Shown here in pieces: positions 836 through 53,979 of a stretch of DNA of 64,000 nucleotides. Source of the DNA: an uncultured virus (IMG/VR IMGVR_UViG_3300025821_000011). Taxonomy: Duplodnaviria; Heunggongvirae; Uroviricota; Caudoviricetes; Crassvirales. Every line of letters starts with the position of its first letter. Positions within the stretch are counted from its first letter, which is position 1. The notes under the pieces are model-generated. The model had not been told where the DNA came from and ran no database searches. It was given only the letters and a program-made list of their open reading frames with translations. A program made the position numbers and the translations under genes. Location of the stretch: the IMG/VR virus record IMGVR_UViG_3300025821_000011; one strand, 5' to 3'.

Positions 836-1036
836 ATGAGTTTACTATATAAACCTAAAGAAGAACAAACATTGACTTGTGATATTAAACAAGAAAACAA
901 TAAAATAGTTATAGACTTTTGGGCAGATTGCGGAAAGTTTGGAACTGATGAAATGCTTGACGGGTATGTACTTACTCCTGAAAGATTACTACAAATATTG
1001 CAAGACCGAGATGATTATACAGATGACGAGTTGTAA
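836..1036 (+). CDS. hypothetical protein preceding the first attC-like site
   Basis: 66-aa ORF; stop is followed by tattacttacAAC. Confidence 0.75.
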   Translation: MSLLYKPKEEQTLTCDIKQENNKIVIDFWADCGKFGTDEMLDGYVLTPERLLQILQDRDDYTDDEL

Positions 1037-1046
1037 TATTACTTAC

Positions 1047-1091
1047 AACGGTGAGTATAACACATCGTTTTAATGTGTGTTATACATTGTT
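1047..1091 (+). repeat. attC-like hairpin
   Basis: AAC ggtga GTATAACACA..cgttttaatg..TGTGTTATAC att GTT. Confidence 0.75.
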
Positions 1092-1130
1092 GTAGTAAGT
1101 ACGGAAAATTAAAAACTAAAATTAAATAGA

Positions 1131-1388
1131 ATGAAAATATTACATATTACACCGAGTACAAAAGGCTATGAAGAAGTTACTTTATTAGCAAATAGAATTA
1201 GCAAGACAAACGGCCTTAGTGCTATTGAAAAGAATGAAAAGCAGTTCATGACTGGTGGATTCTTAATAAACGATACACCACAAATAAGATCCGTATTGGA
1301 TGCGATACCAACCGATAAGCAATATGAATTTGTAAAGGAATTTAAGATGGAGCCTTTTGTACGGCTTTATTTAGAGGACGAAAAGTAG
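1131..1388 (+). CDS. cassette hypothetical protein
   Basis: 85 aa; flanked by gttgtagtaagtac / gtattcactacaac inverted repeat. Confidence 0.8.
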   Translation: MKILHITPSTKGYEEVTLLANRISKTNGLSAIEKNEKQFMTGGFLINDTPQIRSVLDAIPTDKQYEFVKEFKMEPFVRLYLEDEK

Positions 1389-1398
1389 TATTCACTAC

Positions 1399-1586
1399 AA
1401 CTTGAAAGTGTATGATTAGTAGCGTGAGATTAACAATAAATTAAATAAAAATGAACAAACTTGAATTTACAAACAAAGTATTAGACAACTTAAATGATTC
1501 TATAAGTGAAGATGGCAAAGTAGGACTTGCTAAATTTATAGAGCTGACAAATAAGCTGTATGAAGCTATTAATTATACGCATAGTT
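1399..1586 (+). repeat. attC-like hairpin with an ORF start in its loop
   Basis: Arms gtgtatgattagtagc / gctattaattatacgc, 6-nt and 3-nt spacers to AAC/GTT. Confidence 0.75.
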
Positions 1587-1678
1587 GTACGGAGGTTTGC
1601 GAGCATAAAAACGAAACTTTAAGACAAGGCGATGGTTTTACTTATAGCGTATGCTCTGATTGTGGAGAGGATTTATAG
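1451..1678 (+). CDS. chimeric small protein with Cys-rich (Zn-ribbon-like) C-terminus
   Basis: 75 aa; C-terminal AINYTHSC...CSDCGEDL identical to 2250..2477. Confidence 0.8.
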   Translation: MNKLEFTNKVLDNLNDSISEDGKVGLAKFIELTNKLYEAINYTHSCTEVCEHKNETLRQGDGFTYSVCSDCGEDL

Positions 1679-1694
1679 CAAACTTACTTACAAC
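1564..1694 (+). repeat. 131-bp direct repeat, copy 1 (copy 2 at 2363-2493)
   Basis: Identical by eye; identity ends exactly at AAC. Confidence 0.9.
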
Positions 1695-1779
1695 GGTTTG
1701 GCTAAAATGTAGTAGCCGACAAACGAAACTTAAATTGAAATATAAACTTTAACAGAGGCTATTCATTTTAGCTTTTGTT
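1692..1779 (+). repeat. attC-like hairpin
   Basis: Arms ggctaaaatgtagtagcc / ggctattcattttagct. Confidence 0.75.
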
Positions 1780-1795
1780 AGCAAATCGTAAAATT

Positions 1796-1942
1796 ATGGA
1801 CGAAGAAATACAATGTAATAATTGCGGTTGGACAGGAGATTCAACGATGTTAGTAAGCAAAACAGACTCTTTAGATGATAGAGACTTTAACTACTGCCCT
1901 GATTGTGGTAGTGATGATATTGAAGACATAGAAGATGAATAA
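1796..1942 (+). CDS. small Zn-ribbon protein (CxxC...CxxC), 48 aa, not in ORF track
   Basis: MDEEIQCNNCGW...YCPDCGSDDIEDIEDE; flanked by gttagcaaatcgtaaaatta / taattttatgtttgctaac. Confidence 0.75.
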   Translation: MDEEIQCNNCGWTGDSTMLVSKTDSLDDRDFNYCPDCGSDDIEDIEDE

Positions 1943-1955
1943 TTTTATGTTTGCT

Positions 1956-2082
1956 AACGTATATGGTTAAGTGTAGTACCGATAAAATCTACTATAACTT
2001 TAAATTACATACGATGAGAGATTTAAACTTTGACACTGGATATGATGTTATACTTGGATAGGTATTACATTTAACCTTTGTT
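1956..2082 (+). repeat. attC-like hairpin
   Basis: Arms ggttaagtgtagtacc / ggtattacatttaacc. Confidence 0.75.
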
Positions 2083-2197
2083 GTGCGCCGAAAGGCTTGT
2101 AGTGTGGTGCAATTCACAGACCTTATAAACGAGAGAGAACTTGCGAACAAACACGATGTTGGAGGTAGGCGACCAACAGCACCATATTACACACAAC
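2080..2197 (+). ncRNA. putative structured non-coding cassette
   Basis: No convincing ORF; gcc-GAAA-ggc hairpin, gtagtgtggtgc/gcaccatattac stem, gttgg..ccaac stem. Confidence 0.4.
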
Positions 2198-2385
2198 GAT
2201 TTGTGTATGATTAGTAGCGTGAAAATAACAGAACTTAATAAATAAAACAATGACAATAGACGAAATAAATACAATAAGACTAGCCTTAGATACACCAGAA
2301 AATAATAAGCACTACATAAAGCACACGACTGATGCAAAAATTATTTTAAACAAGCAACAAGCAGCTATTAATTATACGCATAGTT
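2195..2385 (+). repeat. attC-like hairpin with an ORF start in its loop
   Basis: Same arms as 1399-1586 around a different loop. Confidence 0.75.
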
Positions 2386-2477
2386 GTACGGAGGTTTGCG
2401 AGCATAAAAACGAAACTTTAAGACAAGGCGATGGTTTTACTTATAGCGTATGCTCTGATTGTGGAGAGGATTTATAG
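2250..2477 (+). CDS. chimeric small protein, C-terminus shared with 1451..1678
   Basis: 75 aa; different N-terminus, identical C-terminal 37 aa. Confidence 0.8.
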   Translation: MTIDEINTIRLALDTPENNKHYIKHTTDAKIILNKQQAAINYTHSCTEVCEHKNETLRQGDGFTYSVCSDCGEDL

Positions 2478-2493
2478 CAAACTTACTTACAAC
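2363..2493 (+). repeat. 131-bp direct repeat, copy 2
   Basis: Matches 1564-1694. Confidence 0.9.
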
Positions 2494-2546
2494 TAAAAGT
2501 ATAAGATTAAGCGTAGCGACCCAAAGGGTTAATTTTATACATTGTT
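2491..2546 (+). repeat. attC-like hairpin
   Basis: Arms gtataagattaa / ttaattttatac. Confidence 0.7.
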
Positions 2547-2585
2547 ATATTTTAGGGCGGGTTATTAACTATAAATTTTATTAAG

Positions 2586-2783
2586 ATGAACCAAATAGAA
2601 AAATTAAAAGCTGTTTTAAAGCAGGAAGAAAAACAGAATGAAGAAGTGTTTACAAAAAGTGCTTGGTGCAGAGAACACAAATTCGATATACAAGCAGATG
2701 TTTTGTATAAAGAATATGAAGCCAAAAGAAAACTTATGCAGACTATTAAGATGAAAGTTATTGATGAAATACTAGAAGTCTAG
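2586..2783 (+). CDS. cassette hypothetical protein
   Basis: 65 aa; flanked by gttatattt / aaatataac. Confidence 0.75.
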   Translation: MNQIEKLKAVLKQEEKQNEEVFTKSAWCREHKFDIQADVLYKEYEAKRKLMQTIKMKVIDEILEV

Positions 2784-2793
2784 CATTAAATAT

Positions 2794-2980
2794 AACGGAA
2801 TTGGGTATGGTTAGTGCCGTGAATTAACAAATAAATTTTATAAAAATGACAGAACAAGGAAAAAAAGTTTGGAAAGAATTAGAAAATATGGAGTGGAGCA
2901 ATGAGCCTAAAGATTTTCACTTAGAATATTTTGAAGACATTATAGAAGCAACTAAAAAGGCATTAACTATACCCGTTGTT
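2794..2980 (+). repeat. attC-like hairpin with an ORF start in its loop
   Basis: Arms gggtatggttagtgcc / ggcattaactataccc. Confidence 0.75.
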
Positions 2981-3151
2981 AGCAATAGTTTTATTTGCGT
3001 TAAAGACCAAGAACCACCCAAAAATACTGAACTAATAGCACAAGACCCTAAAGGCGGCAACTACCTAACGAGTTGGCGAGAATCTTATAAAATATTTATG
3101 TGCCAAAATAAACAAGAAGATTCTTCTGAATGGAAATGGAAGCAAATATAA
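2846..3151 (+). CDS. chimeric protein; C-terminal part resembles DUF551-type phage domains
   Basis: Reads through the junction as ALTIPVVSNS; C-terminal 'ICVKDQEPP...WKWKQI' pattern. Confidence 0.7.
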   Translation: MTEQGKKVWKELENMEWSNEPKDFHLEYFEDIIEATKKALTIPVVSNSFICVKDQEPPKNTELIAQDPKGGNYLTSWRESYKIFMCQNKQEDSSEWKWKQI

Positions 3152-3159
3152 TTATTGCT

Positions 3160-3224
3160 AACACTAAGATAAAGAACGTTTTAATGTTCTTTATTAACTG
3201 TTGACCAACGTTTTAATGTTGGTA
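3160..3224 (+). repeat. terminal attC-like hairpin plus CGTTTTAATGTTGGTA mini-hairpin
   Basis: gataaagaac-gtttta-atgttctttatt, then ccaac-gttttaat-gttgg. Confidence 0.65.
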
Positions 3225-3233
3225 ATTAATTAA

Positions 3234-3267
3234 TACAAACTAAATACGATCGCTAATTGATAATATA
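3234..3267 (+). promoter_or_regulatory. putative early phage promoter (TACARACTAAAYACGA-N9-GATAATATA)
   Basis: One of 7 similar copies, each shortly upstream of a + strand ATG. Confidence 0.7.
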
Positions 3268-3280
3268 ATAAACAAAAATT

Positions 3281-3886
3281 ATGAACCTACTTACACAAAA
3301 CTCTAAACTTAAAAAAACATCGAAAGAACTCGGGCTCCGGGTCTTTAACTTCGGTATTCCTGCCTACAAATCTGCTAGCGGGAAGCTGACATGCCCCATG
3401 GCCGACAGTTGTATAAAATTCTGTTATGCTAAGAAAGGAGCCTACATATGGAGTAACGTAAAACCTGCGTTTGAAAAGCGTTATGAATTGAGCAAGACTG
3501 ACGATTTTGTTGAAGCTATGAACGCTGAAATACGTAAGAAGAAACCTGATTATGTCAGAGTCCATGATAGCGGCGATTATTACTCTCGCGCATATCTAAA
3601 AAAGTGGATCGAGGTTGCTATACACAACCCTAACGTACGGTTTTACAGTTACACCAACATGATCGATATGATGCTAAAAGCTTCATTGCCAGATAATTAC
3701 GACATAATCTTTTCTGATTCAGGAAAACAAAAACATTTAATAAATGAAAGACAACACCGACACACCAAAATATTTTCTAGTCATAGCGATCTTGTTCATG
3801 CTGGGTATACTGATGCTTCATCTGTGGACTTATATGCAACTAGATGGTTTAATACCACCAACAAGGTAGGATTAATATTTCACTAA
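3281..3886 (+). CDS. Gp88-like phage protein
   Basis: TCPMADSCIKFCYA and VRVHDSGDYY motifs. Confidence 0.75.
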   Translation: MNLLTQNSKLKKTSKELGLRVFNFGIPAYKSASGKLTCPMADSCIKFCYAKKGAYIWSNVKPAFEKRYELSKTDDFVEAMNAEIRKKKPDYVRVHDSGDYYSRAYLKKWIEVAIHNPNVRFYSYTNMIDMMLKASLPDNYDIIFSDSGKQKHLINERQHRHTKIFSSHSDLVHAGYTDASSVDLYATRWFNTTNKVGLIFH

Positions 3887-3891
3887 AATAA

Positions 3892-4017
3892 ATGGATATT
3901 AAGCAAGAATTTAGAGAAGAAAAAAATATGGATGTTTACGCTACCAATGTAAACGATGGAAGTTTTAGCAATGTTTATGTAAAATGGCTTGAAGCAAAAT
4001 TAACTTTAACCGATGTT
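3892..4017 (+). repeat. 126-bp direct repeat, copy 1 (copy 2 at 6393-6518)
   Basis: Identical by eye, ending at ccgatGTT. Confidence 0.9.
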
Positions 4018-4140
4018 AGCCAACAACGTGAACTGTTAATTGCTTTTTCTGAATGTGTAGTAAAAGATGTTACAAGAAAAGGGCACGAAGAAGTAGTAGA
4101 TTATTTTTTAAAAAAGCATAAAGGAATTAATTGTGGCTAA
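3892..4140 (+). CDS. chimeric protein, N-terminus shared with 6393..6776
   Basis: First 42 aa identical; diverges right after GTT at 4015-4017. Confidence 0.8.
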   Translation: MDIKQEFREEKNMDVYATNVNDGSFSNVYVKWLEAKLTLTDVSQQRELLIAFSECVVKDVTRKGHEEVVDYFLKKHKGINCG

Positions 4141-4227
4141 CGGTTTGGCTATGATTATGTAGCCTTGAAACACAAAACTTTGAATTAAATATAAACTTTA
4201 ATAAGGGTATTAATTATAGCCCTTGTT
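4139..4227 (+). repeat. attC-like hairpin
   Basis: Arms ggctatgatta / taattatagcc. Confidence 0.75.
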
Positions 4228-4242
4228 AGCAACTTTGAAATT

Positions 4243-4533
4243 ATGGGACAACAGATAATAAAACAGCCAAACGGAAAGTATTGTTTATTTAGTAGTGTGG
4301 TTGATAACGTGACCTACTATGATATGACTAAAGAGGAAATTTTAGAAGTATGGACTGAAAAAGCTAAAAAAGACTTTGAGGAAAAGATTAATGACATTGT
4401 AAGTAAGCTTGATAAAGGCGAAAAGCCATACTTCCAATTTACGTTGAGTTATGAAGAAATGCTTCAAACAATACTTGAAGTACATAATGCTGATGAAATG
4501 CAGAATGTTAAAAGCACAATAGAAAGTAAATAA
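4243..4533 (+). CDS. cassette hypothetical protein
   Basis: 96 aa; flanked by gttagcaac / gttgctaac. Confidence 0.8.
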   Translation: MGQQIIKQPNGKYCLFSSVVDNVTYYDMTKEEILEVWTEKAKKDFEEKINDIVSKLDKGEKPYFQFTLSYEEMLQTILEVHNADEMQNVKSTIESK

Positions 4534-4547
4534 TTTTTATTGTTGCT

Positions 4548-4672
4548 AACGTAATTGTATAAAAATTGAAGCGTGTAAGTATGCTCCACGCATTGATGAG
4601 GGTAGCATATAATTAAACAAACAAAAGCGATTAATAAGACACTACAACTAGCTTTTGTTTTTATACTTTGTT
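4548..4672 (+). repeat. attC-like hairpin
   Basis: Arms gtataaaaattgaagc / gcttttgtttttatac. Confidence 0.7.
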
Positions 4673-4687
4673 GTAGTGCGTTTAAGG

Positions 4688-4933
4688 ATGAAAGAATTAC
4701 AGCCAACAAAAGCTAACAGAATTACAATACCAACAAGAGTAAAAAGGTTTGCAGTAGCTTATTACACAAATAGTATGGGTTGGGAAAATAGCCAACAATT
4801 TTTTACTACACCAGAAAGTGCAATAGAAAACTTTTTACGGTTTTATAAAGACCAAACTGACGATTATGCACCAAAGTTTTATAGTGTGTATGAAGTTGAT
4901 TTAGAGATACCTGTTATAAATGACCTAAAATAA
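4688..4933 (+). CDS. cassette hypothetical protein (start moved to ATG 4688)
   Basis: Flanked by gttgtagtgcgttta / taaatgcactacaac. Confidence 0.75.
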   Translation: MKELQPTKANRITIPTRVKRFAVAYYTNSMGWENSQQFFTTPESAIENFLRFYKDQTDDYAPKFYSVYEVDLEIPVINDLK

Positions 4934-4942
4934 ATGCACTAC

Positions 4943-5132
4943 AACGTTAAAGGCTATGATTTGTAGCGTGAAAATAACACTAACTTAAATAAATAAACAA
5001 TGAATTTAGAAACAGAAATTTACCAAATATTAAGAAAACATAGGTTAAGCCTAAAAAAACGTGAAGAAGTAATAGTTGATTTACTTGACTTTATTAAAAA
5101 ACGTGATGAAGCTATGAATTATAGCCAGTGTT
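4943..5132 (+). repeat. attC-like hairpin with an ORF start in its loop
   Basis: Arms ggctatgatttgtagc / gctatgaattatagcc. Confidence 0.75.
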
Positions 5133-5248
5133 GTATGAGCGAAGCTGAACAGTTGTTTTGCGATTGTGAAATACCTAAACCAACCGACCCATACGATGTA
5201 GTTGATAAACATATATGCCGTGACTGTAAGCAAATAATAGCAAAATAA
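5000..5248 (+). CDS. chimeric small protein with Cys-rich C-terminus
   Basis: Reads through the junction as AMNYSQCC; CxC...CxxC tail. Confidence 0.75.
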   Translation: MNLETEIYQILRKHRLSLKKREEVIVDLLDFIKKRDEAMNYSQCCMSEAEQLFCDCEIPKPTDPYDVVDKHICRDCKQIIAK

Positions 5249-5256
5249 TTGCATAC

Positions 5257-5317
5257 AACGACTCGTGTAAGATTTCGTTTTTGCCTTTTTCGGCAAATAT
5301 GAATTTTACACATTGTT
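5257..5317 (+). repeat. attC-like hairpin
   Basis: Arms gtgtaagatt / aattttacac, inner tttgcc/ggcaaa stem. Confidence 0.75.
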
Positions 5318-5369
5318 ACCCTTAGTAAGGGTTATTTAGAACTAAAATTAATTAAAACAATGAGAACAA

Positions 5370-5873
5370 ATGAAAAATATAGATTGGACAAATCAACATT
5401 GTGGAGTACATCAAGCATCTTTTAAACAGCTTGTAGAATTAATGCCTGACTTAGAGTGTATCAAAGAATCATTTCCTGAAAATGTAAACAATTTTACTTG
5501 GGACGTAAAAGTTCATATGCTTATGCCAAATCAATTCCCTTGCATACCTAACTGGCACTTTGACAATGTACCAAGATTAAATAATAAGCAGGATTTTGAT
5601 GCTGTAAAACTTGATAAACATATGTATTTATGGATTTCTAACGCTCCGTTTACAGAGTTCAGAAAAGACGGTGTAAACACTTTAGTTAAGCCTAAGACTT
5701 GGACTAAATTCACTCAAAAAGATGAGCATAGAGGAACTATGAGTAAAGACTTTCAATGGCGTGGATTCATAAGAGCTACACATCAAGATATTTTACCGCA
5801 AAATAAGAATGGATTAAACCCACATAGAAGACATTCACAGGTTTACTTAGACTCTGGAAACTTCTCTTGGTAG
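5370..5873 (+). CDS. putative 2OG-Fe(II) oxygenase-like protein (cassette)
   Basis: IPNWHFD (HxD), distal H (EHRG) and RGFIR; flanked by gttaccctta / taagggtaac. Confidence 0.55.
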   Translation: MKNIDWTNQHCGVHQASFKQLVELMPDLECIKESFPENVNNFTWDVKVHMLMPNQFPCIPNWHFDNVPRLNNKQDFDAVKLDKHMYLWISNAPFTEFRKDGVNTLVKPKTWTKFTQKDEHRGTMSKDFQWRGFIRATHQDILPQNKNGLNPHRRHSQVYLDSGNFSW

Positions 5874-5883
5874 TATTAAGGGT

Positions 5884-6006
5884 AACTGAATTGTGTATGA
5901 ATTGAAGCGTATAAATAAGCATTAAAAATTGAATATTAAACAACAAAAATAAATATTAACTGAACAACATATAAGCGGATAATAGCTTTTGTTTATACAC
6001 GTTGTT
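5884..6006 (+). repeat. attC-like hairpin
   Basis: Arms gtgtatgaattgaagc / gcttttgtttatacac. Confidence 0.7.
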
Positions 6007-6022
6007 CTTAACTTTAAAAATT

Positions 6023-6163
6023 ATGGGATTAAATAAACACAGATTTATAGTACAAATAATAGCAATGCCAATTACTTGGCTTTTAATGGTGCTAAAAGTT
6101 TTAGTTACAATACCTGCTTATATAGTAGCAAAATGTAACGATGTTTTAGATACTATAGAATAA
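6023..6163 (+). CDS. small membrane protein, 46 aa, not in ORF track
   Basis: MGLNKHRFIVQIIAMPITWLLMVLKVLVTIPAYIV... hydrophobic stretch. Confidence 0.6.
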   Translation: MGLNKHRFIVQIIAMPITWLLMVLKVLVTIPAYIVAKCNDVLDTIE

Positions 6164-6226
6164 TAATTTTTATTGTGGCCAACGTATGGTTATATGGTTA
6201 GATTTTTAACGAATAAATAAAACGAA

Positions 6227-6364
6227 ATGGAAATAGATATAGATTTAAACAAGCGAATAGAGTGGATTAAAGCAAGAGTTGAATTAGATGCACTTACTGA
6301 AGAATACATAAGATTGCAGATGCAAGAAGCTGTAATTGAAACGATAAACAAGTTAAATGAATAG
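6227..6364 (+). CDS. small hypothetical protein, 45 aa, not in ORF track
   Basis: MEIDIDLNKRIEWIKARVELDALTEEYIRLQMQEAVIETINKLNE. Confidence 0.6.
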   Translation: MEIDIDLNKRIEWIKARVELDALTEEYIRLQMQEAVIETINKLNE

Positions 6365-6392
6365 TTAAACAATAAATTAAATAAAAAAAACA

Positions 6393-6776
6393 ATGGATAT
6401 TAAGCAAGAATTTAGAGAAGAAAAAAATATGGATGTTTACGCTACCAATGTAAACGATGGAAGTTTTAGCAATGTTTATGTAAAATGGCTTGAAGCAAAA
6501 TTAACTTTAACCGATGTTGGCAATTGCCCATTTGAAGCTGATAATATATACAGGTTACAAGAAGAAATACGTAAACTAAGTAATGAAAAACAAGTCTTAA
6601 AGACAACAGTTAAGTTCTTAGAAGAAAAGATTAAGATAGATCCAGTATTAGATTTATTCTTTGATATTCCAAATGATAGGTTTAAAGATGTTATTGAAAG
6701 ACTTAATCTATTAAAGAAAAGCTGGGCTTGGAAGAACGAAGATAAATGCCAAATCATAGAAGGATCTGTATGGTAA
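6393..6776 (+). CDS. chimeric protein, N-terminus shared with 3892..4140
   Basis: 127 aa; ...LTLTDV followed by a different C-terminus. Confidence 0.8.
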   Translation: MDIKQEFREEKNMDVYATNVNDGSFSNVYVKWLEAKLTLTDVGNCPFEADNIYRLQEEIRKLSNEKQVLKTTVKFLEEKIKIDPVLDLFFDIPNDRFKDVIERLNLLKKSWAWKNEDKCQIIEGSVW

Positions 6777-6840
6777 ACATATTAATTTGGATAGTCTTAT
6801 TCCTTATATGTATTGTAATATTATTAGCGATAGAACATAT

Positions 6841-6874
6841 TACAGACTAAACACGAATTAAATTCGATAATATA
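6841..6874 (+). promoter_or_regulatory. putative early phage promoter
   Basis: tacagactaaacacga-N9-gataatata. Confidence 0.7.
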
Positions 6875-6889
6875 ATAAACAAATAACTT

Positions 6890-7111
6890 ATGAACAAAAT
6901 TGAAACAATTATGGTTGACTCTTCTGCTATATATAGTGCAGAATACAACACAAAGAAAAAAGAAATTATTGTATACTTTAATAACGATAGTATATATAAG
7001 TATCACAATGTACCAAAATTTATATGGCGTGGATTGTTTGATTCTGATTCTAAGGGTAAATTCCTTAACAAATATATATTTAAAAAATTCACTTATAATA
7101 GATTAGATTAA
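6890..7111 (+). CDS. KTSC domain protein
   Basis: VDSSAI..Y...YKYHNVP....DSKGKFLN pattern. Confidence 0.8.
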   Translation: MNKIETIMVDSSAIYSAEYNTKKKEIIVYFNNDSIYKYHNVPKFIWRGLFDSDSKGKFLNKYIFKKFTYNRLD

Positions 7112-7398
7112 TGACGGAAAAAGATATTACTAGAATTGCAGAAGCAACAGCTAAAATAGTTATAGATCATATTGAAGCTAAGCAAGACGAATGGAATAAT
7201 GAATTTGAAATAAATCTTAATGAATTTAATGTAAACCATACATTAGGTCGAACAGAAACACCAGATGAAAAACAACTATTAGAAACTACAATACTAGAAT
7301 TAGAAAAGCAAAGAACTAAAGCTATAGCTGATGAAGATTACTTGCTTGCTAGCAAAATTAATGCTAAGATAATTGATTTAAAAACAAAACTAAAATAA
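7111..7398 (+). CDS. hypothetical protein with UVR (UvrB/UvrC) coiled-coil motif
   Basis: KAIADEDYLLASKINAKI at the C-terminus. Confidence 0.65.
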   Translation: MTEKDITRIAEATAKIVIDHIEAKQDEWNNEFEINLNEFNVNHTLGRTETPDEKQLLETTILELEKQRTKAIADEDYLLASKINAKIIDLKTKLK

Positions 7399-7877
7399 TG
7401 AATATATTTTATTTATCACACGATCCTAAGAAAGCAGCTGAGTACCAGTATAATAAGCATGTTGTAAAAATGATACTTGAAACCGCACAACTATTATGCA
7501 CTGCTCATTATGCATATAACAATGGACACAACGTTCCTTATAAAAAAACTCATTTAAACCATCCATCAACTATATGGGTTAGATCATCAGCTAAAGCATA
7601 TATGTGGGCATATGAACATATGTTAGCACTAGGTGCCGAGTATACTAAACGTTACGGTAAACATCATCTAACAATCTCTAAGTGCAGAGATGTGCTATAC
7701 ACGTTGCCTAGCGGTATACCGGATAAAGCTTTTGAGCAGCCACCCCAGTGTATGCCTGATGAGTACAAAGTTGAAGGAGATAGCGTTACAGCTTATTGGA
7801 ATTATTACGAAAATGAAAAGCACACTGTAAAAAATAAGAATGAAGACAAGATCGTACGACCTCACTATATAAATTAA
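7398..7877 (+). CDS. pyrimidine-dimer DNA glycosylase (DenV-like) family protein
   Basis: MNIFYL...KHVVKMILETAQLL...HLNHPSTIW...PPQCMPDEYK. Confidence 0.8.
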   Translation: MNIFYLSHDPKKAAEYQYNKHVVKMILETAQLLCTAHYAYNNGHNVPYKKTHLNHPSTIWVRSSAKAYMWAYEHMLALGAEYTKRYGKHHLTISKCRDVLYTLPSGIPDKAFEQPPQCMPDEYKVEGDSVTAYWNYYENEKHTVKNKNEDKIVRPHYIN

Positions 7878-7879
7878 TT

Positions 7880-8068
7880 ATGCAGAAATTACTACGCAAA
7901 TTAAAAAAGAATAAAAGAAAAGCAAAACACGTTATATTGCTTCGTGAAAGAATAACAGAGTTACACGATAGCATTTTTCATAGGGCATTAAAGGGTGATA
8001 CACCAAAAATTATTGAAGCAAAGCTTCTTAAGAAGTATAACAGAAGATTAAAATTAATCTTATATTAG
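7880..8068 (+). CDS. small basic hypothetical protein
   Basis: 62-aa ORF within the operon. Confidence 0.65.
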   Translation: MQKLLRKLKKNKRKAKHVILLRERITELHDSIFHRALKGDTPKIIEAKLLKKYNRRLKLILY

Positions 8069-8071
8069 CAG

Positions 8072-8117
8072 TGCGACACTAGCTAGTATAATATAATAGT
8101 AAGAGGCTAATGTCACA
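8072..8117. promoter_or_regulatory. spaced palindrome (operator/origin-like), copy 1 of 3
   Basis: tgcgacactagc-N22-gctaatgtcaca, overlapping the ATG of the HTH gene. Confidence 0.55.
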
Positions 8118-8736
8118 GTTTGAACGAAACATGGATTATCTACATAAACATCGAATAACATATAAACGTAACCCTGTTACGGATAAACCTACAGAGGTAT
8201 TTGAATGGGGTAATTTCTATGAAGATGGAACGCATGAATGTTATGCATTGTTTAGTTCTAAGGCTAAAATTAACACATATAAGAGCCTTAAATGGCATTT
8301 GTATGTATTATGGTATCTAAATCCTAAAATGGATCAAGACAACTTTAATTTAATTTCTAAATATATATGCGATAATACAAATGGTTTTGTTACATTTGTA
8401 ATATCCGAAAGATTACGCGAGAAAATGGTATACGATGTTTCGTTGATGGATTTAGAAAAACCACCACCAAATAAACTGCGTAAAATTATATTTAAAGACT
8501 TTTCGGGTTTAGACATGAAACAAAAATTGTCTATAGTAGGTAAGATGGTTGGTAGAAAAAGTATATCTGAATCAGAAATATACGATGCTATGATACTATT
8601 GAATGACGCTGGAATTAAAATAACAATCGCTGGATTAGCTAAGTCATTAAATTGTTCATCAAGAACTGTTCACAGAAATATGGGCAATGAACTTAAAAAA
8701 GAAAAACAATTACTAAATCAGCAAATAACAAAATGA
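8110..8736 (+). CDS. DNA-binding protein with C-terminal HTH
   Basis: ITIAGLAKSLNCSSRTVHR helix-turn-helix pattern. Confidence 0.7.
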   Translation: MSQFERNMDYLHKHRITYKRNPVTDKPTEVFEWGNFYEDGTHECYALFSSKAKINTYKSLKWHLYVLWYLNPKMDQDNFNLISKYICDNTNGFVTFVISERLREKMVYDVSLMDLEKPPPNKLRKIIFKDFSGLDMKQKLSIVGKMVGRKSISESEIYDAMILLNDAGIKITIAGLAKSLNCSSRTVHRNMGNELKKEKQLLNQQITK

Positions 8737-8788
8737 CTTTAAATTATATACTTTGTTATATACTAGGCGGTTTAAAAAAGAGAATATT

Positions 8789-8989
8789 ATGGAAGCGCAT
8801 AACGTAAAATACGGAACAAAAGTAATAGTAACGAATAATGAAGTTAAAACACCACCTTCATCAATACCCATAAATAAAGGTGACGAAATTACAATATACA
8901 GACTTGATGGGATGTACTGCAATGGAATAGATAAAGATGGTAATAGAATTTATATTGCTGGATGGACTGAAGTTGAGCCTTGTATATAA
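8789..8989 (+). CDS. cassette hypothetical protein (start moved to ATG 8789)
   Basis: MEAHNVKYGTKV...; stop lies within the terminal tAAc. Confidence 0.75.
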   Translation: MEAHNVKYGTKVIVTNNEVKTPPSSIPINKGDEITIYRLDGMYCNGIDKDGNRIYIAGWTEVEPCI

Positions 8990-9046
8990 CGGCTACGTGT
9001 AACCGTAGTTGCGTGATTAATAACAGAATTAAATAGATATAAACAA

Positions 9047-9256
9047 ATGAAAAAAGCAGAATTTATTAAAAAATTTAGTAAGATAGAATATACTTTTGAA
9101 GATGAATTTAAAGCAGAATTTAATAGTCCTGAACTTATTTGGGAAGCACTTAAAAAGCAATTAACTTTAACCGATGATAATGAATTGGATTGCCCTTATG
9201 AATTTACAAGTAGATGTACAATGGGTAGATGTGGCTGTAAACCTAAAGCAAGCTAA
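9047..9256 (+). CDS. chimeric small protein with Cys-rich tail
   Basis: Contains the LTLTD junction motif shared with 3892 and 6393. Confidence 0.7.
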   Translation: MKKAEFIKKFSKIEYTFEDEFKAEFNSPELIWEALKKQLTLTDDNELDCPYEFTSRCTMGRCGCKPKAS

Positions 9257-9389
9257 TTGTTACCAACGAGAAAGCATAAGAGTATGTAGCGGTATCGTAC
9301 CAGTGCGTTAAGGGTTTGGATATTACCTTGACTTAGACGAAGACTAAAGTTCAGCAACGAACACCGCTATTAATTTTAAATAAATACAA

Positions 9390-10010
9390 ATGAAAAAAGT
9401 AACAAAAAAATTACAAAGATTTATTGATTCAATTTCTACAACAGGAGATAGTAAAATACCTAATGATGATGGTAAAATTTATTACTCTAAAGTAGATGGT
9501 TCTTACTTAACAAGAGTTGGAATGGAAAACGAGTTAAACTTCTTATTAAAAAGAGGTGTAACTGAACAAATACAAGATGGATATGGAGAGCCTAAAACTT
9601 GTTGTATTGGACTGAACCCATTAGAGCAAAAATGGTATGGTTGGTCGCATAGAGCAATATTTGGTTTTGGAATTGGGAGTGAGTGTAAAAAAGGAGATTG
9701 CGGATATGAAGCCGATAATAAAGAAAATTTTGCACAAAGTTGTTTAGACTTTTGGGGAGATAATGAATATAGTATTGGAGATAATAAATTTGAGTTTGGA
9801 GAAGGTCTTGACTATATGGGCGAAAAGGAAGTAAAAGGTGTTTGGGTAGCGTACACGTACAACAATAAAGTGCCAAACAAAAGTTTAAGAGGTACGGAAT
9901 ACACAAACTTCTCACAATTTCCAGAAAAATGGGGTAAAGGAGAATGGACTGCAAAAACTATTGAGGATGCTAAAATTATGGCGGTAGATTTTGCTAAAGG
10001 AGTTTCGTAA
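9390..10010 (+). CDS. hypothetical phage protein
   Basis: 206 aa; KWYGWSHRAIFGFGIG motif. Confidence 0.85.
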   Translation: MKKVTKKLQRFIDSISTTGDSKIPNDDGKIYYSKVDGSYLTRVGMENELNFLLKRGVTEQIQDGYGEPKTCCIGLNPLEQKWYGWSHRAIFGFGIGSECKKGDCGYEADNKENFAQSCLDFWGDNEYSIGDNKFEFGEGLDYMGEKEVKGVWVAYTYNNKVPNKSLRGTEYTNFSQFPEKWGKGEWTAKTIEDAKIMAVDFAKGVS

Positions 10011-10019
10011 ACTATACAC

Positions 10020-10055
10020 GGGCGTTCGAGCCACAACAGTGAGCGCCCTTTTTTT
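10020..10055 (+). terminator. rho-independent terminator
   Basis: gggcgttc..gagcgccc followed by a T run. Confidence 0.7.
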
Positions 10056-10121
10056 AAATATGTTTTAGAACGTACCGCAGATAAGATTAGTTGCGATTAA
10101 ATAACACTTAAATTAATAAAA

Positions 10122-10217
10122 ATGGCAGGAATAAATTTTACAGACGAAAGAGAATATAGTAAACCACTAACTTTTAAAAATAATGATGTTATACACGTTG
10201 TTAGCAAATCGTTTTAA
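10122..10217 (+). CDS. 31-aa ORF ending just after a junction (N-terminal module only)
   Basis: MAGINFTDEREYSKPLTFKNNDVIHVVSKSF. Confidence 0.45.
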   Translation: MAGINFTDEREYSKPLTFKNNDVIHVVSKSF

Positions 10218-10248
10218 TGTTGGTAGTTAAAAATTAAATTAATAAATT

Positions 10249-10282
10249 TACAGACTAAACACGAATAGGAATTGATAATATA
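10249..10282 (+). promoter_or_regulatory. putative early phage promoter
   Basis: tacagactaaacacga-N9-gataatata upstream of the sigma gene. Confidence 0.7.
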
Positions 10283-10287
10283 AACAG

Positions 10288-11052
10288 ATGAAAAAGTATA
10301 ACATACAAAACTACGTTAGGTATAAGAATGATGTTAAGAAATCCATGCCAGAAGATAAAGCCTTCAGCGAGTACACTAGAGATGAACTTATAATAAAGTT
10401 TATGCCACTAGTTGAGAATCTAGCTAGAAAGTTTTCTACAAGCGATCAAGCTTCTGGAATATTAAGTATTAACGATCTAATACAAATAGGTAACGAAGGA
10501 TTGGTTAAGTCTGTAGACAGGTTAGACTGGACTGTTTTAAAAGATTCTCAGGATATAGAAAAAACTTTAAAATCGTTTATAAGCAAAAGAGTTAAAGGGG
10601 CTATTAGAAGACGTATAGATATGAACAGAGGAGATATGCGAATACCAGAGCATAAGTTAAATGAAATACGTAATAATCCTGAAGATAAAAAAGCTGTTGC
10701 CCTGTTTTTTAATTCAATATTTTTAAGTATTGATTCTATAGCTTCAAGTGATGATGATATTGATGGAGAAACTTGGGCTAATAGTATTGAAGATAAGTCA
10801 GAAGATTATAATATACATTTATTAAATATTTATCTTTCAAGTTTAATGAAAAAATATTTAAATATAAAAGAATATGAAGTGTTAAGATTATCTTACGGAT
10901 TAGATTGTCCTAAGCACTCAGCAAAAGAAATTGCAGATAAATTAAACATAAAAGGAGCAAGAGATTATGTCACGGTTTCAGAGCTAAAAAAGCAAGCAGT
11001 ACAAACTCTTATAGACAACGTAGATCATACACAAGTGCTTGACTACCTTTAG
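10288..11052 (+). CDS. phage sigma-70 family RNA polymerase sigma factor
   Basis: LVENLARKF...DLIQIGNEGLVKSVDR (region 2), MRIP, LSYGL...EIADKL (region 4). Confidence 0.85.
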   Translation: MKKYNIQNYVRYKNDVKKSMPEDKAFSEYTRDELIIKFMPLVENLARKFSTSDQASGILSINDLIQIGNEGLVKSVDRLDWTVLKDSQDIEKTLKSFISKRVKGAIRRRIDMNRGDMRIPEHKLNEIRNNPEDKKAVALFFNSIFLSIDSIASSDDDIDGETWANSIEDKSEDYNIHLLNIYLSSLMKKYLNIKEYEVLRLSYGLDCPKHSAKEIADKLNIKGARDYVTVSELKKQAVQTLIDNVDHTQVLDYL

Positions 11053-51755: not shown

Positions 51756-52179
51756 TGTTTACATTCTTTATAGAAACACTTAGCACTTTATCAGTATAAG
51801 TATCCCCCTTCATTATTTTATTTCTTCTACCAGTTGGTATATCTTCTGTACCGAGCATCATTCTGTACAACCTACTTATAAGTTGCTTACCTTTAAAGGA
51901 TACTTTATATATATGATATTTCTGTGTAGTATGATTTCTTTTTCTCCAAACAACTATCCAACCTTCTTTCAATAATCTATTCCATCTTCTATTATCCCAA
52001 CTATATGAAAAACAACCTGTTTTAAAATCTTGTTTAGTAAACATGTCCAAACAATCAAGGTATATTAACAATTCTAAATCAGCGTCGTTTAAATCATTAT
52101 TTCTGCATGCCCACTTACGTATTATTCTGTAGTGCTTTAATAATCCTAATTTTTTAACGTCACTGGCTTCTATTCTCAT
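51739..52179 (-). CDS. hypothetical protein, possibly winged helix
   Basis: DLELLIYL...RLLKEGWI...YKVSFKGKQL. Confidence 0.65.
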   Translation of the reverse strand: MRIEASDVKKLGLLKHYRIIRKWACRNNDLNDADLELLIYLDCLDMFTKQDFKTGCFSYSWDNRRWNRLLKEGWIVVWRKRNHTTQKYHIYKVSFKGKQLISRLYRMMLGTEDIPTGRRNKIMKGDTYTDKVLSVSIKNVNNDKTR

Positions 52180-52442
52180 AAAACTACAACTATATCTTGC
52201 ATTTTTATAACTTGATACGGATCACCGTTTATTTCTATGATATGACCGGCATGTCTGTCGTAATATATTAAATCACCTTCTTTCATACCAGCATTAATAG
52301 CTTCTTCCCCTGGAGATACTACAGATGCTTTAATGTACCTGATATCTTCTCTTTGTTTTTCAGCTAAAAGTAATCCTCCCTTTGTAGGAGTTATACCTTC
52401 TTTTTCTTTCTTTATTATTAAGTTTCTACCTATCGCCTTCAT
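52176..52442 (-). CDS. groES: co-chaperonin GroES
   Basis: TKGGLLL, VVSPG, KEGDLIYY, DIVVVL; adjacent to groEL. Confidence 0.85.
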   Translation of the reverse strand: MKAIGRNLIIKKEKEGITPTKGGLLLAEKQREDIRYIKASVVSPGEEAINAGMKEGDLIYYDRHAGHIIEINGDPYQVIKMQDIVVVL

Positions 52443-53979
52443 TTGCTCTTAAATTATTAATTACACAATCAGTTGATAATATCGTAGTAGCTACAGACGC
52501 AGCGTTTCTTAATGCACTCTTGGTTACCATAAGCGGATCTATTATTCCTTGATCCACCATATTTACAGGTTTACCTGTTAAAGCGTTTAATCCAATTCCT
52601 TCGTCTTGTATATCAGACATTTCTATTCCAGCGTTTTCTAATATTGTAAAGTAAGGAGCTTGTATTGCTTTTAACAAAACTTTTTCTCCTATATTTTTAG
52701 CTATTAGCTTTTGACCTGCATTTAGTAATGCAACACCTCCACCTGGAACAATACCTTCTTTAACAGCCGCTTTCGTGGCGCAGATAGCATCTTCTACCCT
52801 GTCTGTTTTTTCTTTTAACTCTACTTCAGAGTTTGCACCAACTTTAACCACCGCAATTTTAGCAGTTAGCATTGATAATCTTTTTTCAAGCTTTATAACT
52901 TCCCAACTTTTAAGCGTGTTATTTGTAAGCTTTTCTTTTATACTACGTATTACATCCTTTATCTTTTCGGATGCCTCAGAGACTGTTATAACAGTGTCCT
53001 CGTGAGACGTAACACTTTTTAGACAAGAACCTAAATAATCTAAATCAATAGAATCTGCATCATCTCCTAAATCTTCATTAAATATTGTGGCACCTGTTAG
53101 TAAAGAAAGGTCTTCAAGAACTTCTCTCTTACTTATACCGTAAGTTGGAGCGTTAATTACATTAACTTTTAAGTTCCCTTTCTTCTTATTTGTAGCTAGA
53201 GTTGATAAAACACCTTCTTCTAAGTCGCCTATTATAAGCAAAGGTTTGTTGTTTTTTATTACGTACTCCAGCACTTTTTGTATATCTCTTATAGTGTTAA
53301 CTGGTGATTCCATTATTAACACTAACGGGTTTTCTAATTCCGCTGTTTTTGTTTGAGGGTTTGTAATGAAATGAGAATTTGTTAAACCTTTGTCATAAGG
53401 AACTCCTTCAATTAATTCAGAAACAGTTTTACCGTCACCGGCAGTTTCCATCATTACAATACCTGTATTATCTACAGATCTAAAAGCGTCTGCTATAATA
53501 GATCCTAGTTCATTGTCATTATTTACCGATATAGAAGCTATGTGATCTAACATGTTACCTTTAACATCGGTAGCTATAGTATCTAAGTAATCTATAACTT
53601 TTTCTACAGCTGAATTTATACCGTCTTTAATTTCTCTAGAGTTTTTCTTTCCAGAAACAGCATAAGCTTCTTTTAATATAGAGTGAGCTAATACAGTAGC
53701 TGTTGTTGTTCCGTCACCGGCTTCTTGTACAGTTTTTCTAGCAGCTTCTTTTAATAAAGTAGATCCCATGTTTTCTACAGGGTCTAAAAGTATTATTGAA
53801 TTTGCTACAGTTACACCGTCTTTTGTTATAATAGGGTTACCTGCACTGTCTTCTAGCATTACGCATTTACCGCCAGCCCCTAGTGTAGAGCTAACGGCTT
53901 TTGCTAGTTTCTCTATACCTTTAAATACTTGATCTCTGGCGTCATCACCAAAGTTCAAGTTCTTGACAATTCCATTCAT
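52426..53979 (-). CDS. groEL: chaperonin GroEL
   Basis: ITKDGVTVA, AGDGTTTATVLA, GIVPGGG, GIIDP. Confidence 0.95.
   Translation of the reverse strand: MNGIVKNLNFGDDARDQVFKGIEKLAKAVSSTLGAGGKCVMLEDSAGNPIITKDGVTVANSIILLDPVENMGSTLLKEAARKTVQEAGDGTTTATVLAHSILKEAYAVSGKKNSREIKDGINSAVEKVIDYLDTIATDVKGNMLDHIASISVNNDNELGSIIADAFRSVDNTGIVMMETAGDGKTVSELIEGVPYDKGLTNSHFITNPQTKTAELENPLVLIMESPVNTIRDIQKVLEYVIKNNKPLLIIGDLEEGVLSTLATNKKKGNLKVNVINAPTYGISKREVLEDLSLLTGATIFNEDLGDDADSIDLDYLGSCLKSVTSHEDTVITVSEASEKIKDVIRSIKEKLTNNTLKSWEVIKLEKRLSMLTAKIAVVKVGANSEVELKEKTDRVEDAICATKAAVKEGIVPGGGVALLNAGQKLIAKNIGEKVLLKAIQAPYFTILENAGIEMSDIQDEGIGLNALTGKPVNMVDQGIIDPLMVTKSALRNAASVATTILSTDCVINNLRANEGDR

Follow-up and report, generated by a model that had tools for sequence, protein, structure and literature searches.

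The uncultured marine virus IMGVR_UViG_3300025821_000011 (IMG/VR; Crassvirales) carries an array of imperfect DNA hairpins whose arms are interrupted by G·T pairs (wobbles) on the + strand. Comparison with related sequences suggests that these pairs are fixed features of a family of integron-like hairpin sites, and they probably label the + strand: this would be the strand that preferentially folds as single-stranded DNA and undergoes exchange, at AA|C, through a tyrosine recombinase brought in from outside the phage genome. The sequence analysed, called the window below, comprises 64,000 of the 65,839 bases of the virus record. To judge from the family to which the hairpin sites belong, the host would be a member of the Bacteroidota.

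Each site consists of AAC, 5-6 nucleotides (nt), a stem of about 16 base pairs (bp), 3 nt, and GTT. In 13 window sites an imperfect hairpin is bounded by an inverse core (..YYYAAC) and a core (GTTRRRY), one of the latter being GTTC. The sites were located with a detector for the order AAC, 5-7 nt, arm, loop, arm, 3 nt, GTT, which gives G·T and A·C the same score, takes orientation from the asymmetry of the spacers, requires TA at arm positions 4-5, and allows one single-base bulge. It finds 11 complete sites in the genome, all 11 on the + strand and all within 1047-5317, with 1 false positive in 100 shuffles of 900-10400 (both strands) and none in 658 kilobases (kb) and 870 kb of shuffled related loci. 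The array sits among small early + strand open reading frames (ORFs), most of them without an assigned family. Its sites, and the partial or degenerate elements among and beyond them, are as follows.

1047..1091, + strand: site 0, AAC to GTT; one G·T; bulged T on the 5' arm; just outside the range of an earlier, sequence-only reading of this DNA.
1399..1586, + strand: site 1, arms 1408-1423/1565-1580; wobbles at 2, 7 and 12; ORF 1451-1678 begins in the loop.
1692..1779, + strand: site 2, with a T bulge in the 5' arm; wobbles at 1 and 13.
1956..2082, + strand: site 3, arms 1965-1980/2061-2076; wobbles at 7 and 12.
2195..2385, + strand: site 4, arms identical to those of site 1 with another loop; ORF 2250-2477 begins in the loop.
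2491..2546, + strand: site 5; wobble at 7.
2794..2980, + strand: site 6, arms 2803-2818/2959-2974; wobbles at 7 and 12; ORF 2846-3151 begins in the loop.
3160..3202, + strand: site 7, short, atypical and missed by the detector; one G·T and one A·A.
3996..4017, + strand: half site, 3' arm and GTT only, within ORF 3892-4140; its GTT box is complementary to the AAC box of site 8 at 9 of 11 letters.
4139..4227, + strand: site 8, with a T bulge in the 5' arm; wobbles at 7 and 13.
4548..4672, + strand: site 9; wobbles at 10 and 12.
4943..5132, + strand: site 10, arms 4952-4967/5111-5126; wobbles at 7, 11 and 12; ORF 5000-5248 begins in the loop.
5257..5317, + strand: site 11, with a T bulge in the 5' arm; wobbles at 7 and 13.
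5884..6006, + strand: site 12, missed by the detector, with a degenerate GTTC box; wobbles at 7, 10 and 12.
6181..6518, + strand: degenerate site; the 5' arm at 6181 forms no cognate pairing with the 3' arm, which ends at GTT 6516.
8988..10202, + strand: second, decayed group of half sites, with AAC at 8988, 9265 and 10069 and GTT at 10200.

The sequence-only reading had claimed that the arm mismatches are G·T wobbles on the + strand, and this is borne out: all four arm pairs that it quoted were located (sites 1, 3, 6 and 10), with 3, 2, 2 and 3 wobbles, respectively. Across the first 16 arm columns of the 11 detected sites there are 141 Watson-Crick pairs, 23 G·T, no A·C, 4 other mismatches and 4 bulges. 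From the composition of 900-6800 the expected share of G·T is 0.50, and G·T exceeds A·C in 11/11 sites (sign test p = 0.001). Because two sites have identical arms and 18 of the 23 wobbles fall at position 7, 12 or 13, the 23 are not independent events; the 10 distinct arm pairs hold 20 G·T and 0 A·C. The two sites missed by the detector (3160-3202 and 5884-6006) add 4 G·T and 0 A·C. Excluded from these counts were the degenerate pairings 6181/6516, 8988/9176 and 10069/10200, whose arms do not pair as cognates; the best register of the last holds 2 A·C and 1 G·T. When whole sites are folded as DNA, the difference between strands (+ minus -) is -1.73 kcal/mol, with + favoured in 10/11 sites, compared with -0.81 +/- 0.38 for shuffles, of which 1 in 100 is as low. 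Thus, the top-versus-bottom folding bias, whose absence would have refuted that reading, is present after composition is controlled for.

The wobbles recur throughout a wider family. The pattern of site 8 matched 77 stretches in a genome collection, most of them titled Bacteroidota; among viral sequences, two patterns had 26 and at least 129 hits. The counts of arm pairs and arm positions that follow leave out sites that match the query and refer to sequences, not to independent events; they cover 277 distinct related arm pairs. There are 190 G·T and 7 A·C in 85 distinct bacterial arm pairs, and 384 G·T and 11 A·C in 192 distinct viral arm pairs (2.24 and 2.0 G·T per site, respectively). Among sites free of bulges, G·T occupies position 12 in 68/72 bacterial and 138/147 viral cases and position 7 in 52/72 and 107/148, the G nearly always standing in the 5' arm opposite a T in the 3' arm; the reverse, T·G, is never seen at position 7 and is seen once in each set at position 12. 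The wobble strand is the better-folding DNA strand in 129/145 bacterial and 211/234 viral sites, with differences of -2.35 and -2.45 kcal/mol that carry no shuffle control. The arrays keep a single orientation, sites occurring on both strands in 1 of 158 loci.

The fold itself is supported by covariation beside the wobbles. All four Watson-Crick pair types occur at positions 8-10 with pairing kept; where position 7 departs from G·T it holds Watson-Crick pairs, among them C-G, two changes away (3/72 bacterial, 11/148 viral); and G·T remains in excess of A·C at positions other than 1, 7 and 12 (24:4 and 33:8). These same observations, together with the wide range of site lengths across the family, argue against the view that the arms are simply two double-stranded protein-binding half-sites of slightly differing preference, with no hairpin and with wobbles as a by-product. 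Such half-sites would account for the separate conservation of the 5'-arm G and the 3'-arm T, and the TA at positions 4-5, which the detector requires, resembles the TATA of the attI-like sites described below; we nonetheless consider this explanation very unlikely.

Strand-biased mutation offers another way to obtain wobbles from perfect stems without selection. Both transition types, C to T and A to G on an exposed strand, yield G·T on one strand, and the + strand of this region is G-rich. It is also A-rich rather than T-rich, and the wobbles concentrate at positions 1, 7 and 12/13 in one polarity (G·T versus T·G, 280 versus 14 in viral and 142 versus 15 in bacterial sites). This fixity of position and polarity rules against mutation bias, as does the independence of the bias from gene direction (see below), and the idea is hardly credible.

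Gene direction separates the bacterial from the phage arrays. A cassette unit was defined as the stretch between two adjacent sites, and its longest ORF was scored against the wobble strand. In 64 bacterial units the ORF is antisense to that strand in 56, sense in 6, and lacking in 2; in 143 viral units it is sense in 136, antisense in 4, and lacking in 3. Since phage genes lie on the wobble strand and bacterial genes on the other, the phage genes lie back to front. The classical arrangement, in which the recombined strand is antisense to the cassette gene, is found in 56/62 bacterial units but neither here nor in 136/140 viral units. The G·T:A·C bias is the same whichever strand holds the gene (136:3 for bacterial antisense and 13:0 for bacterial sense ORFs; 290:2 for viral sense and 8:0 for viral antisense ORFs), indicating that the wobbles follow the architecture of the site and not the transcript. 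On the evidence of these comparisons, the + strand of this phage corresponds to the bottom strand that is recombined in classical integrons, and it is the polarity of the genes that has been reversed. The earlier suggestion of a strand usage unlike that of classical integrons therefore stands only with respect to the genes; use of a different strand of the site itself is unsupported, as attI junctions fall at AA|C of the wobble strand in bacteria and phages alike.

The same reading had allowed that selection might act either on folded top-strand DNA or on messenger RNA (mRNA). Of these, the folded + strand is the most likely. If the stems were selected as mRNA hairpins, for processing, stability, translational control or RNA-templated cassette genesis, G·U pairs in the transcript would explain the bias; the wobble strand is indeed the mRNA strand in this phage, the polarity is kept in 136/140 viral units, a start codon lies inside the loop in 4/13 sites, and whole-site RNA folding favours + in 11/11 sites (-8.05 kcal/mol, + minus -). 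As the origin of the bias, this is contradicted by the bacterial units, where the same wobbles are antisense to the genes in 56/62. In addition, G·T pairs are no more frequent per site in viral than in bacterial sequences, and the complementary boxes belong to different hairpins and match attI. Rfam covariance models at gathering threshold give 0 matches in the window and only tRNAs in 10 related loci, with weak chance matches at E up to 10. An origin at the RNA level thus appears highly improbable, and an added mRNA effect in phages may exist. Flavo-1 RNA was considered as a candidate and has no match in the window or the related loci. A 2.2-kb contig titled Mycoplasma sp. (L144) carries sense ORFs and a site almost identical to window site 8, and is probably a mis-binned phage fragment.

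Related arrays point to the enzyme that may act on these sites. Three bacterial arrays end at a tyrosine recombinase with PF00589 and PF13495, and recombinase relatives (E <= 1e-60) are present in 75 of the 121 genomes that were sampled within a single flavobacterial family, and in 36 of 201 for the phylum. Of 65 bacterial recombinase loci, 28 (a few of these retrieved twice) carry downstream sites whose wobble strand is antisense to the recombinase, and none has sites so oriented upstream; the phage-type layout is present in 3. Those three (L372, L375 and L376), with wobble-strand-sense sites upstream of a recombinase of 280-293 amino acids, are possibly prophages. An attI-like TATA..A|GTT follows the recombinase stop codon for 51 of 63 distinct bacterial proteins, and the box of this motif is complementary to the first site's AAC box in 21/23 loci (mean 4.70 of 5; shuffles 1.92). 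Searching viruses with the recombinase alignment yielded 72 distinct phage recombinases, of which 28 have wobble-strand-sense sites upstream, 1 also downstream, and 1 on the other strand. Here an attI-like ..AA|CTATTATATA stands just before the recombinase gene in 28/72 loci and matches the GTT box of the last site in 12 of the 14 loci in which it lies within 900 nt (shuffles 2.31 of 5); 4 loci with attI farther away were excluded from this matching. Read on the wobble strand, attI is one kind of motif in bacteria and phages, so that joining takes place at AA|C of this strand in both.

These recombinases score 149-207 bits against the TIGR02249 integron-integrase model, whose cut-off is 265. 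In one aligned protein, IntI4 residues 180-260 are covered by 32 residues, so that it is 48 residues shorter across the insertion region. The best NCBIfam score of the associated recombinases is to NF040815, and their best PDB matches are XerA and IntI4. Among the viral loci found by pattern, no recombinase was seen except one weak fragment; the L147 recombinase, which no attI-like site follows, was left out of the array integrases.

The ends of the cassettes also fit exchange between sites. In the window, the GTT box of one site and the AAC box of the next are complementary at 4.6 of 5 letters, with at least 4 in 10/10 pairs (shuffled control 2.15; boxes within one site 1.82). The unit 4548-4946, which runs from AAC to AAC and contains site 9 and gene 4688-4933, is covered exactly by contigs in two public runs (X8 and X11), neither of them flagged as a possible source; the X11 contig has a different 25 letters upstream, and the X8 contig diverges downstream. 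Site 9 and the gene that follows it are thus found together as one AAC-to-AAC unit. Most other joints in the public runs were set aside, having sides of 20-35 letters from related sites with common arms, and contigs from the RNA runs X23 and X24, with small shares and differing letters, are uninformative on RNA ends, strand or level. A comparison of shared flanks among 440 sites revealed 8 pairs that break at AAC (6 viral, 2 bacterial). Within the window, a 146-nt duplicate (1549-1694/2348-2493) ends at AAC, and the proteins concerned have the same C-terminus and different N-termini. Some loci also contain near-empty cassettes (L165 2804-3117 and 6787-7032; L238, L181 and L234), in which sites of 200-290 nt are followed by bodies of about 25 nt; their long loops may hold the gene.

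Several observations weigh against strand-marked exchange of the + strand. About half of the difference in DNA folding between + and - is compositional, and when stems are folded alone (-1.8 kcal/mol, + minus -) the + strand is favoured in only 7/11 sites. Bulges sit on the AAC arm (4 versus 0 in the window, 10 versus 3 in bacterial and 36 versus 8 in viral sites), which in classical sites is the side that disfavours IntI recombination (PMC5027507). The attI patterns were fitted after the sequences had been inspected, the box-matching test being independent of that fitting. This phage genome has no PF00589 match and, near the array, no attI-like match, and the array may for that reason be inactive. 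Complementarity of adjacent boxes at 4 or more letters is weaker in viral arrays (70/118) than in bacterial ones (39/46). Finally, 4 viral pairs break cleanly at GTT, the body being common directly after GTT and the sites before it unrelated; 6 further viral pairs have in common the body and only part of the site; and a 136-nt window duplicate (3885-4020/6386-6521) ends at GTT, with proteins of the same N-terminus and different C-termini. Because of such GTT-side breaks the unmarked strand may also be exchanged; they could result from this, from independent capture of one gene, or from annealing of the Erf type.

If both strands were exchanged at comparable rates in phage arrays, the wobbles might serve as recognition or flip-out marks that the recombinase needs on any substrate and imply no choice of strand. 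The 4 clean and 6 partial GTT-side pairs, set beside the 6 viral AAC-side pairs, and the GTT end of the 136-nt duplicate would be expected on these terms, and the near-invariance of position 12 goes beyond what a small gain in stability needs. The attI junctions (21/23 and 12/14 loci at AA|C of the wobble strand) and the single orientation of arrays speak for one strand, and on the other strand the marks would be A·C, not G·T. We consider this explanation unlikely.

The preferred mechanism, then, begins with the wobble strand, which would fold as single-stranded DNA and be cut at AA|C. On the complementary strand, A·C at positions 7 and 12 would give a weaker, distorted fold that is disfavoured. 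The wobbles and the unequal spacers (5-6 and 3 nt) would replace extrahelical bases in strand selection, as fits a recombinase without the IntI insertion. This recombinase would be supplied by the host or by a co-infecting phage, and in phages its strand selectivity is probably leaky. Our best guess for why phage genes are kept on the folded strand is that the sense strand may be more single-stranded during transcription or replication. In classical integrons, placing the attC bottom strand on the lagging-strand template raises excision (excerpt of PMC5371416). A bolder proposal, which we offer tentatively and with some doubt, is that Bacteroidota phages run integrons back to front, the coding strand being the folded, wobble-marked strand exposed by early-gene transcription or replication. 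Excision on the unmarked strand and then reinsertion on the marked one would swap hairpins and loop-coded N-termini between gene bodies, making the array a site-specific generator of protein fusions whose polarity is set by two G·T pairs and not by flipped-out bases.

The sites share many traits with classical attC as described in the available portions of PMC5027507 and PMC2727003: an AAC...GTT hairpin with an unpaired spacer, a variable loop and complementary cassette ends; exchange at AA|C of one strand, with a G:T excess and a fold about 2 kcal/mol better on that strand; and attI beside a tyrosine recombinase. In classical attC, G:T pairs number 1.24 on the recombined and 0.39 on the other strand, with a folding advantage of 2.12 kcal/mol (PMC5027507). 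The enrichment of G:T on the cut strand is thus known already, which limits the surprise of that finding alone. Unlike the classical mean of 1.24, for which the excerpted text states no positions, wobbles of the window family occupy fixed positions at about 2 per site. Strand choice in classical attC is directed mainly by the first extrahelical base (PMC2727003). Extrahelical bases opposite the cleaved AAC are absent from the window sites and most relatives: within the first 14 columns, a 3'-arm bulge occurs in 0/10 window, 3/85 bacterial and 8/192 viral distinct arm pairs. The family thus differs in mostly lacking such bases, in carrying bulges on the AAC arm, and in its 5-6/3 nt spacers. Unlike in classical integrons, the recombinase has no IntI insertion; the bacterial one is co-oriented and followed by attI; and in phages the folded strand carries the genes, and the order is array, then attI and recombinase. 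Cassettes in opposite orientation are stated in PMC5027507 not to be observed in classical integrons. From sequence comparison, the window array would act like an attC bottom strand but fall outside classical attC and integrons with respect to extrahelical bases, IntI and gene polarity.

The array also resembles phage CALINs, such as that of Polaribacter phage P12002L (PMC9892861, seen in part), in being a cluster of hairpin sites among small genes in a phage without its own integrase. The CALIN layout (at least two attC sites, no integrase nearby) is present in this genome, as a matter of layout alone. The published CALINs, compared here by description, were found by IntegronFinder/HattCI, and 5 of 6 were recombined with IntI1 as bottom strands; those of TJE1 and PH101 have the typical orientation, unlike this phage. 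The recombinases are like the integron-like tyrosine recombinase subgroup (PMC8138268, in excerpt) and archaeal XerA in having PF00589 and PF13495, NF040815 as best family, and XerA and IntI4 as PDB matches. That source calls the insertion essential for integron function, whereas here proteins without the insertion adjoin attI-like sites and cassette arrays. Within the open-access literature, subscription journals being outside the scope, no description came to light of such a family of sites, of wobbles at fixed positions, or of phage arrays that are reversed.

Elsewhere, the virus record encodes a sigma factor, Erf, an exonuclease, a primase/helicase and thymidylate synthase. Only 8 of 80 loci of close relatives, found via the GP88 gene, have a site at score >=24 within 10 kb; these relatives supplied few junctions, and the array is therefore a gain that is either recent or specific to the lineage. 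ORF 9390-10010, immediately after the decayed half site at 9265, scores 132.9 bits (cut-off 27) against Pfam Tad6, an inhibitor of type I Thoeris; this anti-defence gene may have entered as a cassette. A 33-nt promoter-like repeat is located upstream of early genes at 3235, 6842, 10250, 63020 and 63782 (5 matches, 0 expected), two copies lying directly after array ends (~3230 and ~10230). The phage also encodes a Cpn10 and Cpn60 pair at 52176-53979 (- strand).

Strand choice in integrons is usually ascribed to extrahelical bases read by an insertion specific to IntI. The widespread family described here appears to lack both and to have two fixed G·T pairs instead, which bear on how an Xer-like enzyme selects a folded strand and on how recombination of the IntI type arose. 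Almost no complete integrons were reported in Bacteroidetes by IntegronFinder 2.0 (PMC9024848, in excerpt), so a large gene-capture system may be overlooked there. The systematic reversal of cassette genes in phages raises, in turn, the question of how cassettes arise and how they pass between host and virus.

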